A stretch of DNA of 64,000 nucleotides, from NCBI GenBank assembly GCA_000934665.2, contig JYFJ02000451.1:62001-126000 (forward strand), read 5' to 3'. The translations under genes were made by a program, and so were the position numbers. The DNA is from Catajapyx aquilonaris (taxonomy: Eukaryota). The notes below the pieces were generated by a model, which did no database searches, had not been told where the DNA came from, and saw only the letters and a program-made list of their open reading frames with translations. Below, one piece after another: positions 1-11,401 of this stretch (positions are counted from its first letter, which is position 1; each line of letters starts with the position of its first letter).

Positions 1-520
1 ACACTTCCAACACTGTGCTGATTATTTATTGCCAGTATCTTCCACTAGCCCTGTTATTTTCTTAGACTAATTTTTCCCCTGTTAGTATGCATGATGATTT
101 ACAGAATTTTCAAGAGTAATTGGTCATTGGCAATAACTTGATGCTCTTATCATGACAGGCTTTCAAATTCTTGGTTGGAAAAATATAGGTGCGTGACCTA
201 CATAAAAAATTCATAGTTGCTTAATTTTTTAAAGTAGAACATTTAATGATATGTGCTTGCTTTTGCTTTATTTGCATGCACAGGTTTTGTAGATACAATG
301 AATACAGGCTATGCTTTAGCGTATATTTTAACCCCCCATTATTTCATAAAAAGTATTACCATTAATTAAGTCTGCAGTGAGAAAATAGCATAGGTTTTAT
401 TTTTCCAGTCTAGGTTAACGGGGAGATTTACATATATATTTTTAGTTCTTGTTTCATTTTCTTTCATTCCCTCTACTGGTGATATCATTTTTCATTTGGT
501 GTTCCTTGTAGCATGTGCCT

Positions 521-595
521 AAAAGTAATGGCGTCAAAAGTAATGGCATCGATAATAACGGCCTCGAATATAATGCCGACAAAAGTAATGTCGTC
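521..595. repeat. Degenerate 15-bp tandem repeat x5 (AAAAGTAATGGCGTC-like)
   Basis: Units at 521 aaaagtaatggcgtc, 536 aaaagtaatggcatc, 551 gataataacggcctc, 566 gaatataatgccgac and 581 aaaagtaatgtcgtc. Confidence 0.8.
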
Positions 596-1512
596 TGACT
601 GAGAGTCCATGCCGCTTACGTCTGGTAAGCAAGTTGGCGTACAAAAAAAAAAGCATGACACGTATTTATTTTCAATTTCTCACTTTTATTTTCATTCATT
701 CATTTTATGCATTGACTTCTACTGCTCTCTGCTGGTTCTTGGAAGAAAAAAATTGATCGACAAACAACTTCCTACTGAAATGGAGTTTGGGGCTTGCATT
801 GCTGCTGTAGAGATATTTCCATTTCACTAACTGTTGAATTTATTTTTAAGTAGATCGTTGTGGGTATGCAATTAACAGGAGTCAGTGGTTTATTATTGGT
901 GCATTTATTGGTGCATATTTTGTATGTGCTGCTGAAGTAATTCATATTGGTGCATGTTGGTGTACATGTGTGGCAAATAGATAAACAGTTTTTTTTTTTT
1001 TTTAAAGATGTCACATGGTAACTTGGGATTTAGAAAATGTGACATTTGTTGAAGGGAATTGAATGTGGAAAGCAAGAGTAGTTTTTACCTATCCTCTCAG
1101 TCCTACCTTGTTCAGTCTATTCCTTTTTCAGCGGCAATTGGCATTTATTAGATCACATGTTTTAAATGGTAAACTTGAAGAGCCACAAACAGTTCACGAC
1201 CTCTACTATATTCGGTAATGGTTACTTTTTAGTGCTGCTCATAAGGGAAATGTTTTAAATTGATACCTAGCGCTATAGGAGTTGCATAAAATTTGGGTGT
1301 CATATGGAATTGCGTCGCCTTTGTCATGCAATATAAAAATTAGAAGCTGAAAATTTTTAAATTCAGTTATGAATGGAAATAAATTGTTCAGCTCCTGAGC
1401 TTTACTGGGTGACTAGGATGGGAATTACATATATGCTACTTTCATTCGTGGTAAGCGACTCACAAAATTTATTGGACTGACAAAACTCCCACATCCCAAT
1501 ATCCATCCTTAG

Positions 1513-1650
1513 AATGTGAGCTCGAAAGTGACACAATCCTTCCAAGCCCAGGACTCGTCTATCCATACCCCCCTGGAGAAACCGTCACAGAAACAGGTCA
1601 GCTTCAAGAATGCACCTCCCAGGAGATCTTCTTCCAGTTGGAATGTTTGA
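1513..1650 (+). CDS. Probable 3' coding exon of an unidentified gene entering from the left (cassette 1513-1596 or alternative terminal exon to TGA 1648-1650)
   Basis: Acceptor ccttag|AAT at 1512/1513 starts a GC-richer open frame NVSSKVTQSFQAQDSSIHTPLEKPSQKQVSFKNAPPRRSSSSWNV*. An internal donor CAG|gtcagc at 1596 gives an 84-nt phase-0 exon. No family recognised. Confidence 0.4.
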   Translation, partial: NVSSKVTQSFQAQDSSIHTPLEKPSQKQVSFKNAPPRRSSSSWNV

Positions 1651-2663
1651 CAGCAAGAACCTGAAAAGTATACATAAAAAACATAAAATATATACAAACA
1701 CACAACGAGTTTGTCAGTATTTACTCATCTCTCGTGTGAACAAGAAGAGAGAATGATGGCATTGTGGTTTAATTGTTCTTGGGGTATAAACCATTTAATT
1801 AATTTTTTTTATAGTGGAGGAGGTGACTGCACAAAATATGCATGTGTGTAGGTTGTGGAGGTGGATCTGACTTTTAACTGTTGACATTAATCACTTGTAT
1901 GAAGTTGGGGTGTCGCAAGTGTGGCGTTATTGTCAGTTTTAAAATGTGGCAAATTTGACCAAAGGTTCTTGACATTGACGGAAAAAAATGTATGCACCAC
2001 TCGAGGTGGATGATCTAACCGGGATTGTTTGTTAATTGTCGTTATCAATGATGCTGGTTAGGTCTGGTTGCACTGCCTCCAGAAAACATTTTCTGGCGGA
2101 GAAAGAGCAGTAAGAGTTTGCTATTCTTTGTTATCAACAATGAATAGCCATCTCGTCACACAATGCAACCAGAGCTCAGTGGTGCAAAGTGGCCTCGATT
2201 AGAGCCTCAATTTGTTTTGGAAAGCAATTCAGCTTGTGAGACAACAGCAGTTGTTGTGAGGAAAAGGGCGATGTGAATAATTGTACAGTTTCCATGAGCT
2301 TTTAGAAAATATTATTGTGGTTACTCCATAATGGCATTGTACAATTTATTACCTCCGAGGCCCGATAAGGTGCAGTCAAGGATTAACTGCATTAGCTGTG
2401 ATGCTTACTATTTTGTCAAGTTTCATAATCAGGTTGAATTAATAACTGAAATCTATTTCGTGCATCTTAGATCATACCAATTATTATGCAATATTGCGTC
2501 ATTTTCAACACTTCATCAGTTGAACATAGTTTGCATTCATTTAGATCCTTTTCTCAAAAATGTTGCCACATTGTTAAATTGCAATAATGTGCCACGTGAC
2601 ACCCTGACCTTTGCCTGCCATAATGCTCTGCCTTGACACTGATTCATGCCCTTAAAAAAGCAG

Positions 2664-2897
2664 GGTCGCGACAGCCCCTCCCCTGCCACGACCCCTTACC
2701 TCTGCCGGCAACGGACAGGGGTGTCGGGGGCAGGCCAGCTGGGTGGCAGTGGGGGGTTGATGACCGGTTCAACTGGCAACTGTGCCAAAGCATGCGAGAA
2801 GGATGAGAATGACCTGTCGCAGATGGAGCGAGGACACCTGCTGGCCAATGGCGGGTATGCTGTTGTTCCTGCCGTATCCAGCGAGTCGTCCGTTTGA
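2664..2897 (+). CDS. Terminal coding exon of an unidentified upstream gene, ending ...SSESSV* (frame reopens to 3071)
   Basis: Acceptor aagcag|GGT at 2663/2664, within a GC-rich island in AT-rich DNA. Reads GRDSPSPATTPYLCRQRTG...AVSSESSV then TGA 2895-2897, followed by an in-frame open extension to TAA 3069-3071. Confidence 0.55.
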   Translation, partial: GRDSPSPATTPYLCRQRTGVSGAGQLGGSGGLMTGSTGNCAKACEKDENDLSQMERGHLLANGGYAVVPAVSSESSV

Positions 2898-5161
2898 CCC
2901 TGGGCTGGACAATCAGATTGCAGCAGCAGGGCTGGGGCCGTGACCACATTTGTGGATGCGCCTGTTTTAGAAATGCCCACCTTCATGGACGCGCCTGTCT
3001 TGGCCCCACCTGCAATCCCGCCCCCTCCGCCAACCCCATCCAAAACTGCCAGAGCCAAGAGGAGTGAATAAGTGTTGGTGTTTGCCAGACAATTTCATTC
3101 TTTTTTTCTTTTTTTTTTACACCCGTCCTGATTTACAACTGCAAGGGGGGCTATTGATTGATTGATTGATCAGTAGTTTGAAAACTAGCCAAGTTGGGTA
3201 AAAATAATTATTTAAAAGCAATAATCAGTAGTTACACAATATTGTAATTTATGATGAAAGTCTAATTTTTGTAATATTGAGAAGAAGAAAAAAAGGTTAG
3301 AGTTTTAATCTTTAGTTACATATTTAATTTTATTCTTGTTGTCTTTTGTTATAATTTTTTTATAACTTATTGTGACAATTTTGAAGAAAAATAACAAGGA
3401 AGATTTCCAGAATGTGTATATAGCATTCCCAAGTGTTCACATCAACAAAATACCCGCTAACAATCACATTGGACAGTCATTGCTGGGAAATGATAACGGT
3501 CCATAAGTTCTGTCCAGTGTTAGGCCTTAATGAGAATGTACACATCACATACAACAAACCTTGTTTCTTTCACTTGAGTGCTTGACAAGTGATTGTAAAT
3601 GCACAGTATTACCAGAAAAAAAAAATGACTCGTCAGATGAACAGAACAAACAAACTGTGCCATTTTTTTCCCCCCTAAACTTTCTGAGTGTGAAATGTCG
3701 GATGTTAATTTTTCCCAGGAGCCGCTGTACTTTTACGTCCATTTTTTAAAAAAGTATGTAAAGCATGCGCCATTGTTTGCATTGTTGGTATGTGACGTGG
3801 ATGCACAGCTGCATAGAATCTCTTAATTCTACACTTCTTCTAGTCAGGATCTGATATCAGCACACCAAGGTCCTTCGTTTTTTTAAATAAGAGACATGAT
3901 TTTAGTGATTGTACATTATTACGCACACGAGTACATGTTTGTGTGCTTTGTAATCGAGTGGATTACAAAGATGCGACACCTTTGCCTCAGGCAATTGTTG
4001 TGTTTGAACCCTTTGGTGACAAGTTGTTTCCAGTGCAGTAATATAGTTGGTTATGTAATTTATATACACAAAGTAAATAAACACATAGGGACACATTACC
4101 GATGGTAGGTAGAACAATGTACTTACTGCCCACAGCAGGAAAAAAAAAACAAACAATAAAATCATTTCTATACCAAAATATTTTTATTCATGCAGCACAA
4201 GCTGGGGTCTACACAAATGCTTAATTTTTTGTCACAACCAAATTGGCTCACAGATTGTGCGTAATTGTATGGAGAGAATGTTATGAAAATTTGACATGTT
4301 GGCACAAGGACTTACGACCACTTTGTACATAGTCTGTTTAATTCAAGGCACTAGCAGTGCTCTTATCAGTATTTCATGGTGCATGCATTGCCTCCAAAAA
4401 TACGTACAAGGAAGAATGACATGTTTCCATGGAATAGCAGGTTGTATCATACAGTATCTTCAGCAATGTTTCACTTACACTTACATGAAGCTTTACAAAA
4501 TGGATGGCCATAAGGTACAAAAATAACAAAGCTTCGACACACACTAAAATTCTCATTCCCAGTCACATTCCTACTTCCCCTCCAAAGGATTGTCCCATAC
4601 CCTGCAAGAATAATAATGAAACTTGTCTTTACTGGAGTATCCCCAATGCTAAAACAATTTTTTCTGTACTGAACATATCCCTTGTATGCAACATAAAGAC
4701 TGACTTTCCATGGTATCTAGGGCCTCTCGGAGACAGGTTTCACTGTATTGTCATATGTATAGGGAGCAAAGAGCTCAGCAGGATATCATTAACTGAAACT
4801 GCACCAGGGGTGTGTACAGCTAGTACTTCAGGTAATGTCTGCATATCCTGATCAAGAAGTGATGGTTACTCATTTTGGGTCATTTTGAACTTATGCTAGG
4901 GCCATTCACGATTGGATCTTAGTTCTGATAACAATTAAATGTAATTCAACGATTACCATACTGACAAAGAGAAACACTAGCAGAACATGATCCAATCTTG
5001 AAATTTTTGTGGTGGGTGACATGGTATTAAAATAATTATCTCAGCCCAACATGCAATTTCAATAGTTAATTGCTAATTTTGTACTTAAAAACCTTCCTCA
5101 TGATTGCTATCTCAAGACTAGCTGCAGCATGTCACCGGTTAATGAATATTATGCCATAATT

Positions 5162-8100
5162 TTATGCTGACTCTTGTGACTGCTTGTAGTCATAAACACT
5201 CCCTCTTTGCAATGTCACGTGAGCAGCAGGTTGTGAAGATTTACTTCCAGTTAGTGTTGGATCTCCATAGCCACCTCCACCGGGTGTGAAAAGCTGGAAG
5301 CAGTCTCCAGTGTCGACAGGAACAGACGCTTTACCCCCAAGGTTGATCAGTCGCCCGTCAATCTTTTTCAGCAGGTTAAGTCCTCGCTTCCCAGGTGATC
5401 CCCCAGACATGCCATAAGGACTCAGTGCACGCCTTTCTGTTAACACTGACAGTGTTAAAGGCTTTGTGAAGGTTAACTCCCGAATGAGGCCATCACCACC
5501 TCGGAACTGACCTTCACCACCAGAACCACGGTTGATGCAAAACTTGCTGACAACAATAGGATAGCGCCGTTCCATAATTTCCGGATCTGTAATCCGTGTG
5601 TTGGTCATGTGGGTATGTGTCCCAGAACGTCCGCTCCAATGAGGGCCTGCTCCAGAGCCACCTGCTACAGTTTCATAGTAGCCCATGCTTGCATCACCAA
5701 AGGTGACGTTGTTCATGCATCCACATGATGCGGCACATGCCTCGAACGCATGTAGCAGTACGTCCACCACCCTTTGTGACGTCAGTACATTGCCACCAAC
5801 AACGGCAGCCGATTCTGATGGTGACAGTATCGAGTTGGGTGGAATCACTAGTGACACAGGTGTCAAACAGCCCTGGTTCAGTGGAATATCTTCCCCAACT
5901 AGGCATCGAAGTACGTAAATTACAGCTGATACTGTGATTGCCCTAGGTGCATTGCAATTTCCCAACACTTCAGGGCCAGTACCAGTGAAGTCAATTATAG
6001 CGTCGCCAGTGGCTGTATCAATAGAAATTGCAACGGCAATGCATGTTCCATCGTCCATGTAGTCCTGAGCTTTTAAGATGCTTCGACCTGTTCGAGAGAG
6101 GGCCTCTCGACCAATATGACGCAAGACATCGCGCACAGCAATTTCTGCATTTTGCTGTATGTATGACATGTATGCATGTACTACGTTTAATCCATATTGC
6201 TCAATCAGCTCAGTGACAAGCCCTATCCCCTTCTGATTGGCTGCCACTTGAGCCCGCAAATCAGACACGTTGTCATTGACATTCCGGGCACCAGCACAAC
6301 CAGGTACCAATTTAGGAGACATCAGAGCCTCAATCAAAGCTTCTTCTCGAAACACGCCATTCTGCACCAGTAAAAACGACTTGAAACATGCTCCCTCTTC
6401 AGACAGTGACTTGGAGTGTGGGGGCATTGATCCAGGAGTGATTCCACCTATGTCACTGTGGTGGCCGCGGTTGGCCACATAGAATATTGGCGACTTGCTA
6501 TTCACAAACACAGGTGTTATTACAGTCAAGTCTGGCAGATGTGAGCCTCCAGCCACAGGGTGGTTGCACAAGATGACGTTTCCAGGCAGCAGATGGTCAC
6601 TGTAGTGATTCATCTGATACTGCACCGTCTCTTGCATGGCACCTAGATGAACGGGGATGTGAGGTGCATTTGAAATGAGGCCGCCATCTGGGCCAAACAA
6701 GGCGCAACTGAAGTCAAGACGTTCCTTAATGTTCGTTGACATGGATGTACGTTGCAGGACACGGCCCATTTGTTCCGCAATGCTCATAAAGCGATGAGAA
6801 AATATGCTTAGCTGTATGGGATCCAACTTTGTCCCAACTGAATCACAAGGGGCATCACCAATTGAAATTTTGATGTCACCTTTGGAGGTGATGTTTGCTG
6901 TGCAGTTGGGCTCAACCAAAATAGTGCTGAGGTCATCTATAATGATGGATGGCCCACTTATTTCATGCCCATGCTTGAGGTTTGTCAGCAAGTGTACTGC
7001 CGTGTCAAGATAGCCATTCTCAAAGTACACGTGTACTGTCTTCTCCGGATGTGGCGTACCGTCACTTGATGGCACGTCTGGAACTTGTGAGACCATTGTG
7101 CGACCTGTACCCCGCACACGAACATCATCAACCATGATGTCTCGACCAGAAATGGTGAAACCAAACTCAGACTGGTAACGCCTCAAAAATGAAGCCAAGA
7201 AGTCACCGTGATGGCTTGTGTTTACATGCGCACTCTTTTCATCTGCAGTGACCATAATGGCACAATCAGTTCCTTGATACCTCATGTGGAGGAATGCTTC
7301 TGTTGAAATGCAATCTGGTGAAAAGCCATGCTTCAGTAGTGCTTTGGTACATTTTAATCTCATAGAATCCAGGCGCTGGTCCAGTTCTTGGAAATTGCTT
7401 GGCGTGTATGCAACTGCACATGGTTCTTGTGCCTCCTCAACCACGTCAGCACATGCCATTCCATATGCGGATAAGATACCAGCATATTTGTGAATAAAAA
7501 CAGTGCGGATACCAAGAGCTCGGGCAATTGCACAAGCGTGTTGGCCGCCAGCTCCACCAAAGCATGCCAGTACATGCTTTGACGTATCATACCCTCTCCC
7601 CTGCGTGAGTGCTCTTATAGGCCTGCACATGGCCTCATTTGCTACACGTATGAACCCCATAGCAACTTCTTCAACAGGCATATCTGGCTTGAGCTTCTGG
7701 AAAGCCTTTTGTGACGCATCCTTATCTAAAGGCATGTCATCATTTTTGCCGAAAACATGTGGGAAATATTCTGGCAAAACTCGTCCCAAACATACATTTG
7801 CGTCAGTTACTGCTAAAGGACCGCCCCTCCTATAACATGCAGGGCCTGGACGAGCTCCAGCTGATTCTGGGCCGACTGCAAACATACCGGAACGAATTGT
7901 CAAAATTGAGCCACCGCCTGCAGCCACCGTGTTTATATCTAGTTGCGGTGTTTGTATAGTAACACCAGCTGTTGTGGTCTCAAAAACATGCTCATATGAT
8001 CCAGCAAACCGACTAACATCAGTTGAAGTTCCCCCCATGTCAAATCCAATAACCGGGGAGGCTGTCTCATTAGTCACGGCATATCCAACAACCCCTCCAG

Positions 8101-9649
8101 CGGGTCCTGACAGGATGGATCGAGACCCACGGAAAGAGCTCATTGGTGTAAGACCACCATCACTCTGCATAAAAAGGACATTGACACCCTTCAGTCTGTC
8201 TTGAAATCCAGCTGCAAACCCTGACAAGTATTTCTTTATGAGTGGCGTTAAGTAAGCATCAGTGGCAGTCGTGTAACCCCTGGGGACTATCTTGACCATT
8301 GGCATGACTTCCGATGATATTGAAACATGCCCAAAGCCAATTTCAGAAGCGATACGTCCCACCTTTTGCTCATGGTCTGATACAGCATAGGAGTGCATTA
8401 ATGCAACTGCCAGGCTGTTGATACCCTTTTCCTTAAGGCGAATAAGATCAGATCGTAATTTCCGCTCATTCAGTGGTGCAAGAACTACCAGGTCTTCTCC
8501 TGTGCTGCCTTTGACTTTAGCCATACCTGGAAAAAACAGGATATTAGCTGTGATTGTTTCATGTTGCATGCAAAATATTATGCATCACTTATTGTAACGA
8601 ATTAGAGAACAAGAAATAACATGAACGTGATAGTAGTCTAGCTCTCATAACATTAATATAACTGATTCAAAGAGTAAAGGCCCATTCACACAGGCCGTCG
8701 ACGGTTTTGGTTTTTGGTCTCGTCGACGCCGCGGACCAATCAGAACAGGCCCTCACGTAATCAACACGTCATGGTTACCGTGACGGCCCGCTCTGATTGG
8801 TCCAAAACCAAAACCAAAACCGTCGACGGCCTGTGTGAATGGGCCTTAATAGTTAAAGCCTTATTCCCAAAACGTATTTTGAATTCACCCTGGGAAAGTC
8901 AATTTACTGGCATTTGTTGAACTCAGTACACTTTACATGATTGGGTTTAACATAAACAGAAGCAACAGCTACAATATCACATGTTTTCTGATTCATCTCA
9001 TATGTGAGAACATACATCTAATGTTACATTGCATTTAACACATGTGTTCAGAACGTTGCCCTGAAGGACCATCATTTTTGGTATCATCTAACTACAGCAG
9101 CAATAAATTGGTCTATTTCCTTATAATTAGGTCATGTAATATTATGGTATCACCTTTGGTTTTGGCATCTCCTCCAGTATGATCAACTACTGCACTTAAG
9201 CTGGCAGCAGTTGCCATTGCTACCCTTTCCTCAACCTCAATGACATCTTCATATAACACAGATGCTTTCTTGACCTCCAGGTCAAATATGTCTGGCCGTG
9301 ACTGATTCCCAATTTCAAGCAGGTCTGGAAACCCAGAGGTGACAGCCAGAGCCATCTTCTCCCCCTTCCTCTCCAGCAGGGCATTGGTGGCCACAGTAGT
9401 TCCCATGCGGATCCACTCAATCTCCCCTGTGGGTATGGGTTGTCCTCTTGCATACGCTTCTCTTTCACCTTCATGGAATTCTTGCAGGATGCGTCGTATC
9501 CCCTCTGTTGGGGCATCTGGATACAATCCAGATGGATCCTCCGACAGCAGTTTCATGACACGAATCTTACCACCTGGGCAGCAAGCGTACACGTCTGTGA
9601 AGGTCCCTCCTCGGTCAATTGCAAACTGGAACTTCCCCGGGGCTGACAT
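5162..9649 (-). CDS. OPLAH: 5-oxoprolinase (ATP-hydrolysing), ~1286 aa, 2 coding exons (9649-9154, 8526-5162)
   Basis: Hydantoinase/oxoprolinase motifs [57 protein letters not shown] and [10 protein letters not shown] phase-1 GT-AG intron at 9153-8527 joins the two ORFs in frame (496+3365=3861 nt). Confidence 0.97.
8678..8846. mobile_element. PIF/Harbinger (Tourist-like) MITE, 169 bp, in the OPLAH intron
   Basis: TIRs AGGCCCATTCACACAGGCCGTCGACGGTTTTGGTTTT / AAAACCAAAACCGTCGACGGCCTGTGTGAATGGGCCT, flanked on both sides by TAA (8675-8677, 8847-8849). An inner inverted pair GGACCAATCAGA/TCTGATTGGTCC is also present. Confidence 0.85.
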
Positions 9650-11401
9650 GTTTCGCCGTACTAAACTGCAACGGAATGCGAATTACTTAAGATGTTCTGC
9701 CATAATAATAAAAAATCAACAAGTGATAAAATGTTGCAACTACATTCGTTCACCTATTTGTACAAATGATTAATTTTCTGGCACTCTTTTCATGCAGATG
9801 GCCACAAAATGCTGTAGTTGCAACACAAATTTATTTCTGGCTTATTGTATTTAGAACCTTGAGTACTTCCTTGTTATTGTATGATCAACTTTATTAGAAC
9901 CAGTGCAGGGGTGAGTTCTTTGTCCTTCAACTAAACTAAATGTGGCTTTGAAATTAATTTTTCTACGTATTTGCACTTGTAAGAATGTACTTTACACCTA
10001 TAAGAGCAGGGTCTTTAAGTAATTAAGAGACAGGAATGATCTGAATGCCCTTATCAGATTCGCGACCGATAATGTCATTACATAATAATGGTTGTGACAT
10101 CTTCATTCATAATCGATCATAATTTTTACTAATGTGACCGTACTTGCAAAGTTTGGAACATGCATAAATTAAAATTGCAATTTCAATCATATGCCAACAA
10201 TAATTCCAACATGTGACGGTTTGTATTCAACCTACTAGATCAGCCCTTGCTTCCGATAATACCAGTCCTCCCCCTAGCTGTAACTGTCCTCATAAAACTT
10301 ACTTGCAAGCAGCCGACACGTACGACTTCCGTGTTCGAAGGACGACATTCATCCGTTGCGCAAGCAGCAGACCCGGTCCACTCGTTCCTTCCGTCCGAAA
10401 AACCCCAGCGGTCCGTTCCTCCCTGTCCAATGTCTGTTCCGGTTCGGTCCCCTGTTCCACTTCCGACAGATGGCGTCCTCGTTCGTGTCATGATCTGGCA
10501 ACGTGGCTCTGGGGTGGGGGAGGGGGGGTGGAAATAACTGTAATAGCTTATTGGAATAAAAAGCAGCTAACGGGGGCCAACGTTTTTCCTGGTAAGCTAG
10601 TAGCAGCTATGCTAGTTGAATAATACGCTGGTGTTCTGTTTGTGGGGGTTGGCGACGGGTGGTTGTTCCTCTGGTTCGGGGGCATCGAATATTTCTCAGT
10701 TCCTTCCTCCCTCCGCGGGCCACCAACTGGGGCTTCCGGGACACTGGCTGGAGCGACCCCCCCCCAGCATCCACAGAAGGACCCCGCCGAAATACCCAGT
10801 GTCAGGGGTTCCTGAAGAGAGTGGAGGGGTGACGGTCGGGCCGGGGATCTGCCGGATTGGTGCCCAGCCAGGAGGGAAGGTCGCCGTGTGTATATTTTGA
10901 GCGCGCGGGGGGGGAAATTGACGGGTCGAACTAGGGCTTCAGTTCTGTCCGTTGTAGCTGGCAGAAGGGGAACCCAACAGGGAACAACAATAATTATACA
11001 GGTTGGCTCATTTTCGTGTTTCTCGCCAGTTGATTTAGTTGGCCACGAAATGCTGACTTCAACAGACAATAATGACATTTAATAAATAATAAACACAATA
11101 AACAGTACAAGAATAAGCTATAAGCAGAATAAACATAAGAATAATATAATAATATTTCACCATTTCATTTTGTACCCTGTTCTCAGGCGTGGGGCCTTTT
11201 TGGGGTGAAACAACCCCAGGTTTTACAATTAAGAACATAAGTACATTCGCTTATAGACATTGAGAAAAAAAAAATACAAAAATAAATGGAATATACTTCA
11301 TTTAGATAGGTTCACAAAAAACGAAAGGTAATTCCTCAGGCAAGATAAGCATGGATAAGCGTAATGTAATAATAATCATCTTTTCATGTGCAGCGTGGAT
11401 A

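Follow-up and report, generated by a model that had tools for sequence, protein, structure and literature searches.

Stop codon readthrough is abundant in Pancrustacea, with 353 candidates in Anopheles and 333 in Drosophila (PMC5100048), and one of the genes in which it has been measured is the fly zinc transporter gene ZnT63C (FBgn0035432), for which ribosome profiling gave rates of 0.7% in embryos and 2.7% in S2 cells (Table 1 of PMC3840789). In that paper the fly gene also has a PhyloCSF score of +181 and is counted among the nine transcripts with regulated readthrough, out of 182 that were testable (PMC3840789). The fly ZnT1 protein is described as serving basolateral zinc export, and its amount as falling post-transcriptionally at high zinc (PMC4015762). 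Mammalian ZnT1 (SLC30A1) ends in a class I PDZ motif, ESSL, whose PDZ partners are treated as speculation in PMC3975337. No mention of a ZnT1 PDZ motif was found in PMC12130317, and no switch in which readthrough masks a PDZ ligand appeared in the titles and first lines of abstracts of the literature pairing stop codon readthrough with PDZ.

Here we compare with these systems the end of the ZnT1 gene of Catajapyx aquilonaris, which lies in a window of 64,000 nucleotides (contig JYFJ02000451.1, positions 62,001 to 126,000). Positions are those of the window unless the contig is named.

The ZnT1 gene and its stop codon

The gene whose last exon lies in the window was identified, from its sequence, as the orthologue of ZnT1/SLC30A1 (fly ZnT63C), a zinc exporter. 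Exons 1-6 are located upstream of the window on the forward strand (about 57557-61851 of contig JYFJ02000451.1), where they are defined by RNA joints, and they matched the Pfam families PF01545 (Cation_efflux) and PF16916 (ZT_dimer) above the cut-off. Exon 5 was 84-93% identical to nearly all of its best 120 matches, and the proteins among these 120 that carried a name from their source were ZnT1/SLC30A1 of arthropods. The first-pass annotation had left the gene to be named from its upstream sequence, and it is these domains together with the exon 5 matches that name it. Exon 7, the last coding exon (2664..2894, forward strand, with the stop codon extending to 2897), is supported by RNA joints and by homologues, and it has the motifs GR-x-x-PSP-x-x-TPYLCRQR and EMERG-x-LL in common with the last exons of insect ZnT1. 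When the exons were joined at the RNA-supported joints, the main protein had 464 residues and the C-terminus ESSV. A DNA search of its own 285-Mb genome gave a single copy, and no tested insect group stood out as near to C. aquilonaris ZnT1 in the homologue comparison.

The first stop is a TGA followed by a C (2895..2898, forward strand) and is the candidate readthrough site; it is read alike in the genome and in an RNA contig, and it agrees with the ends of the orthologues. The exon end SSESSV-TGA-C, with the same frame open for 57 codons down to a TAA at 3069-3071, had been described exactly at first pass. Because the insect orthologous proteins terminate at the same point, we take the TGA at 2895 to be the ancestral ZnT1 stop and not a recent nonsense change. 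A terminal V, I or L was found in 49 of the 66 homologues with a homologous last exon.

The pattern of a class I PDZ ligand is [ST]-x-[VIL] at a free C-terminus, and -ESSV fits it, as had been proposed for this end; the same pattern was present at the C-terminus of only 15 of the 66 homologues with a homologous last exon. Ends of the form ESCV or ESRV were seen in ZnT1 of cockroach, termite, locust, ground beetle, caddisfly, lacewing and flea, and the first ORF of D. melanogaster ZnT63C ends in SDLV, which is not class I. A ZnT1 model of Ischnura elegans (P0051) continues beyond the point where a similar protein (P0042) ends in KESRV.

The description of UGA-C as a leaky context is in line with PMC5100048, where its enrichment at readthrough stops is stated. 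The 8-mer with the strongest enrichment near the readthrough stops of fly and mosquito in that paper, CAGCAGCA (PMC5100048), was found at 2921..2928 of the forward strand, 24 nt past the stop; of 3786 windows, each 171 nt long, 41 also contained it, as did 8 of 256 GC-matched ones, and its AGs are possible acceptors of an intron that is considered below. Folding of the sequence just 3' of the stop gave no stable stem-loop (z +1.06 and +0.38 against shuffles), and readthrough stimulated by structure was thus unsupported.

Composition and coding signal of the second reading frame

The candidate readthrough extension (2898..3068, forward strand) is a second ORF of 57 codons, delimited by frame, G+C and codon model, that is rich in proline and has a basic end. 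It is followed by the second stop, TAA (3069..3071), and by an AT-rich 3' untranslated region (3072..4160) with AATAAA at 4076 and 4155. The turn to AT-rich sequence after the TAA, remarked on in the first-pass annotation, was borne out, and both G+C and coding score fell at the second stop, not at the first. Exon 7 and the extension had a G+C of 0.63 and 0.60, and the following 171 nt one of 0.32. The best single change point was located at 3067 (support 3038-3092), and a change at 2898 was worse by 24 log-likelihood units. All eight gene ends of the same genome that were used for comparison, which were picked by eye, are unverified and include none with a TGA stop, lost G+C at their own stop, and their second ORFs had 1-14 codons.

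The length of the open frame is by itself unremarkable, with a frame of 57 open codons expected in 18% of composition shuffles (P 0.18) and frame +2 likewise open for 55 codons. The codon composition was more informative. A 3-periodic codon model was trained on 16 kb of this genome, made up of 29 hand-picked ORFs. It gave the extension +15.9 bits in frame 0, while the other sense frames had -11.2 and -12.0 bits and the 171 nt after the second stop had -49. The frame-0 score exceeded those of 77% of 77 held-out coding windows. Among 2000 stop-free shuffles 0.25% scored as high, and so did about 5% of 221 GC-matched background windows, which were open and overlapped one another; a frame bias as large as the 27 bits seen here occurred in 0.35% of shuffles. 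The signal was carried by 2925-3068, and over the 9 codons of 2898-2924, too short a stretch to decide, the score was near zero.

Within the extension there are two copies of an 8-codon unit (2946-2969 and 2979-3002, forward strand) with a period of 33 nt. The duplication, and the five synonymous third-position differences out of six which the first-pass annotation had taken to suggest selection on the protein, were confirmed (P 0.007 for that phase). The selection signal itself depended on where the repeat was bounded: widened by two codons upstream, to 10 codons, it had five synonymous and three non-synonymous differences, with P 0.056.

Relatives of the tail were searched for in several ways. 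HMMER over 1.84 billion representatives gave two matches, both to unrelated repeat proteins, a word search for the tail considered 1300 candidates and scored none of them at E up to 1, and Pfam gave no match. Known ZnT1 last exons were missed by these searches as well, so their negative outcome carries little weight. No DNA of a close relative was found among 80 metagenome loci, and no annotated extension outside drosophilids was found among the cluster members listed, at most 15 per cluster, with 18 orthologues looked up. A clearly homologous last exon was present in only two of the 80 metagenome loci, one ant-like with TGA-A (L059) and one water-flea-like with TAG-T (L010), and both turn AT-rich right past the stop. 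TGA-C was found in one of the 38 metagenome rows with a readable stop, L037, whose untranslated region is GC-rich throughout; in this distant ZnT1 relative (L037:658-759) SLGSV is followed by TGA-C, by 32 codons with TDLRE twice, and by another TGA-C.

These results bear on whether the stretch is translated at all. It could be untranslated today, either as a GC-rich proximal part of the 3' untranslated region or as what is left of a former readthrough region or longer tail that no longer functions; the unremarkable open frame with its frame +2 counterpart of about the same length, the weak signal of the widened repeat, the absence of a tail homologue among our search results and the two arthropod-like orthologues that have no such tail would all be in keeping with this. 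We nevertheless think it unlikely, given the 27-bit frame bias, the G+C change point placed at the in-frame TAA, and an ancestral stop at which the fly orthologue is measurably read through.

The main caveat of the coding score is that the antisense frame that shares its third positions with the sense frame scores alike. For model orders 2-4, in the order listed, the antisense shadow frame had 15.9, 12.4 and 12.5 bits and the sense frame 14.6, 15.9 and 5.6 bits. A shadow-frame score so unusually near to the sense score, or above it, could mean that it is the minus strand that codes here, with an antisense gene having an exon in that frame, which is stop-free over 2696-3094, and an acceptor-like site on the minus strand near 3046, noticed by eye, falls inside the change-point interval. 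An antisense exon appears highly improbable to us, however, because no minus-strand joint was found here among the listed joints of the one RNA run, there was no Pfam match, and the repeat favours the sense over the antisense frame, with two synonymous and two non-synonymous codons when read in the shadow frame against five and one in sense. The shadow score may itself arise from the proline runs, which are read in antisense as glycine runs that the model favours.

RNA evidence and alternative ends of the transcript

The single run listed for this stretch is not on record as RNA but proved to be spliced RNA, because 8 of its 10 listed joints are GT-AG introns of ZnT1. The extension is present in this mRNA, TGA included: a contig of 1263 nt spanned 2857-4119 with 0 differences and 0 gaps against the genome and bridged the TGA with 38 letters on the short side. 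The end of this main contig at 4119 fits the AATAAA signals at 4076 and 4155. A further RNA contig, over 4351-4464, differed from the genome at eight places and by a gap of 1 nt, and probably represents a second allele of untranslated sequence.

UGA is the codon through which several other routes to a longer product operate, and the extension contains two in-frame ATGs, so that the stop could be recoded or bypassed by selenocysteine insertion, by A-to-I editing to UGG or by reinitiation at the ATG at 2973, or could be an assembly error. We give such routes a very small chance. The RNA contig reads TGA and no other letter, and its identity with the genome rules out an assembly error at this codon; the first copy of the repeat lies upstream of the first ATG; and in 2600-5200 no Rfam SECIS family was matched at E up to 10, the two weak Rfam matches there being neither of them SECIS. 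The Rfam matches thus gave the selenoprotein reading no support.

Splicing offers another way around the stop. The first-pass annotation had pointed to an in-frame GT-AG intron of 69 nt (2855..2923, forward strand), and its GT at 2855, its AG at 2922-2923 and its high G+C of 0.55 are indeed there; the 2854/2924 junction that it implies was not found among the listed joints. More generally, minor or tissue-specific splicing from the donor at 2855 to an acceptor at 2923, 2926, 2929 or 3052 could remove the stop. The GTATGC at this donor is the most consensus-like among the in-frame candidates of exon 7, the coding score begins to rise only past 2924, and the main contig starts at 2857, 2 nt beyond the donor; moreover, contigs drop rare variants, and the evidence on splicing comes from one run, of which 24 contig pieces stood outside the listing. 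However, none of the 10 listed joints of that run fell inside exon 7 or fitted such an intron, and the contig was unbroken at every candidate acceptor, 2924 and 3053 included. By our reasoning, with words of 31 letters a real junction at 2854 should leave contig breaks close to 2825 and 2924 and not at the observed 2857. The G+C of the proposed intron also stands against the 0.32-0.39 of the eight RNA-supported ZnT1 introns. We therefore hold the 69-nt intron to be disfavoured, possible as a minor isoform, and removal of the stop by splicing in general to be quite unlikely.

A different alternative end is supported by RNA. A cassette exon between exons 6 and 7 (512..624, forward strand), with RNA joints on both sides, carries its own TGA-C stop at 596-598, which lies 26 nt before the next junction and yields a form of 415 residues ending in KSNVV. 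The depth of its joints was about 6.5, against 11.5 for skipping, it scored poorly in the codon model, and the sequences of many insect proteins begin to differ at that very exon border. The gene thus has three possible C-termini, and the claim made at first pass that there are two does not hold, although its central interpretation, readthrough, is supported by the ZnT1 identity, the ancestral stop, the unspliced contig and the reading-through of the fly orthologue.

In the last intron, 1513-1650 (forward strand) could be a further terminal exon, with an AG and 45 in-frame codons ending in Val-TGA-C, an end that resembles the other two ZnT1 ends. It contains a KQVSF stretch, which we take to be PP1-docking-like. 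An RNA contig covered 1318-1663 unspliced, and no joint for this candidate was present among those listed.

Tail to tail with ZnT1 there is an open frame of 1140 codons on the reverse strand (5162-9682), presumably, by its sequence, a 5-oxoprolinase-like gene. At 4076-4188, poly(A)-like signals of the one strand stand close to those of the other. The ORFs farther on, in 11306-53873, we take to encode a TRIM/PHD-bromodomain protein, a RhoGAP, a BTB plus HMG-box protein and a serine-protease homologue.

Probable readthrough of ZnT1 and its comparison with known systems

The best reading of the extension is, in our judgement, readthrough of UGA-C of the insect type, to which we assign a probability of about 0.65. 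The ZnT1 mRNA would be unspliced across the stop, and most ribosomes would terminate at the UGA at 2895, giving the 464-residue ESSV form. A minority, probably a few percent, would decode UGA-C with a near-cognate tRNA and continue for 57 codons to the UAA at 3069. The product would be a minor form of 522 residues, with 58 residues added, that would keep the membrane and dimer domains and carry a disordered proline-rich tail, leaving ESSV internal and without its role as a C-terminal PDZ ligand. It is a fair guess, by analogy, that this form would lose PDZ anchoring, since PDZ domains recognise C-termini that are free and the mammalian protein has the class I motif ESSL at its end. Binding to a scaffold or placement in the membrane could then be affected, and the tail peptide itself may be under selection.

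A broader and rather doubtful idea is that regulation by readthrough of ZnT1 is old and has been retained since the early hexapods, and that selection has acted on the burying of the transporter's hydrophobic C-terminal ligand and not on the sequence of the tail. Unrelated tails would then stand behind the same stop in flies and in the C. aquilonaris lineage; readthrough and the cassette exon would together set the amount of exporter that is anchored to the basolateral or synaptic membrane, perhaps as a response to zinc; and a translational arm would be added to the post-transcriptional zinc control of fly ZnT1.

The mechanism is in any case already known, because readthrough of ZnT1 is established in the fly, and what is new is a probable case in a second and distant lineage. 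ZnT1 readthrough seems patchy, because the ant-like and water-flea-like orthologues have no such tail and ZnT63C has no row in the table of PMC5100048, either as a candidate or as the orthologue of a mosquito candidate; it may have been gained repeatedly, or it may be an old trait with losses. The candidates in that paper were obtained from whole-genome alignments scored by PhyloCSF (PMC5100048), whereas the C. aquilonaris case comes from one genome and one RNA run.

Six drosophilid gene models (P0198, P0199, P0282, P0288, P0291 and P0301) carry a conserved ZnT63C tail with the motifs given for the fly extension in the supplement of PMC4999894. They join the tail to the first ORF at differing points and probably bridge a stop by predicted introns.

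The fly and C. aquilonaris systems are alike in the orthologous gene, in the same last exon, in an in-frame second ORF past the ancestral stop and in a disordered, low-complexity tail. They differ in that the fly tail has 95 residues, is Thr/Gln-rich and ends in GDEVAL, a listed class 2 PDZ motif (PMC4999894 and its supplement), whereas the candidate tail of C. aquilonaris has 57 codons and is proline-rich, and in that readthrough has been measured in the fly and is deduced here. The two tails showed no similarity to each other (shuffle P 0.25-0.64). What the locus adds to the comparison is a tail that looks coding, follows the same ZnT1 stop and is unrelated in sequence to that of the fly. 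Two lineages with unrelated tails could mean that readthrough has arisen more than once at a favoured gene, or that it is old and its tail has been replaced completely. Compared with mammalian ZnT1, the ESSV of C. aquilonaris matches the ESSL motif at the extreme end of the orthologous transporter, and the case offers a clean test of whether readthrough serves to silence a PDZ ligand at the C-terminus and of whether its rate depends on zinc.
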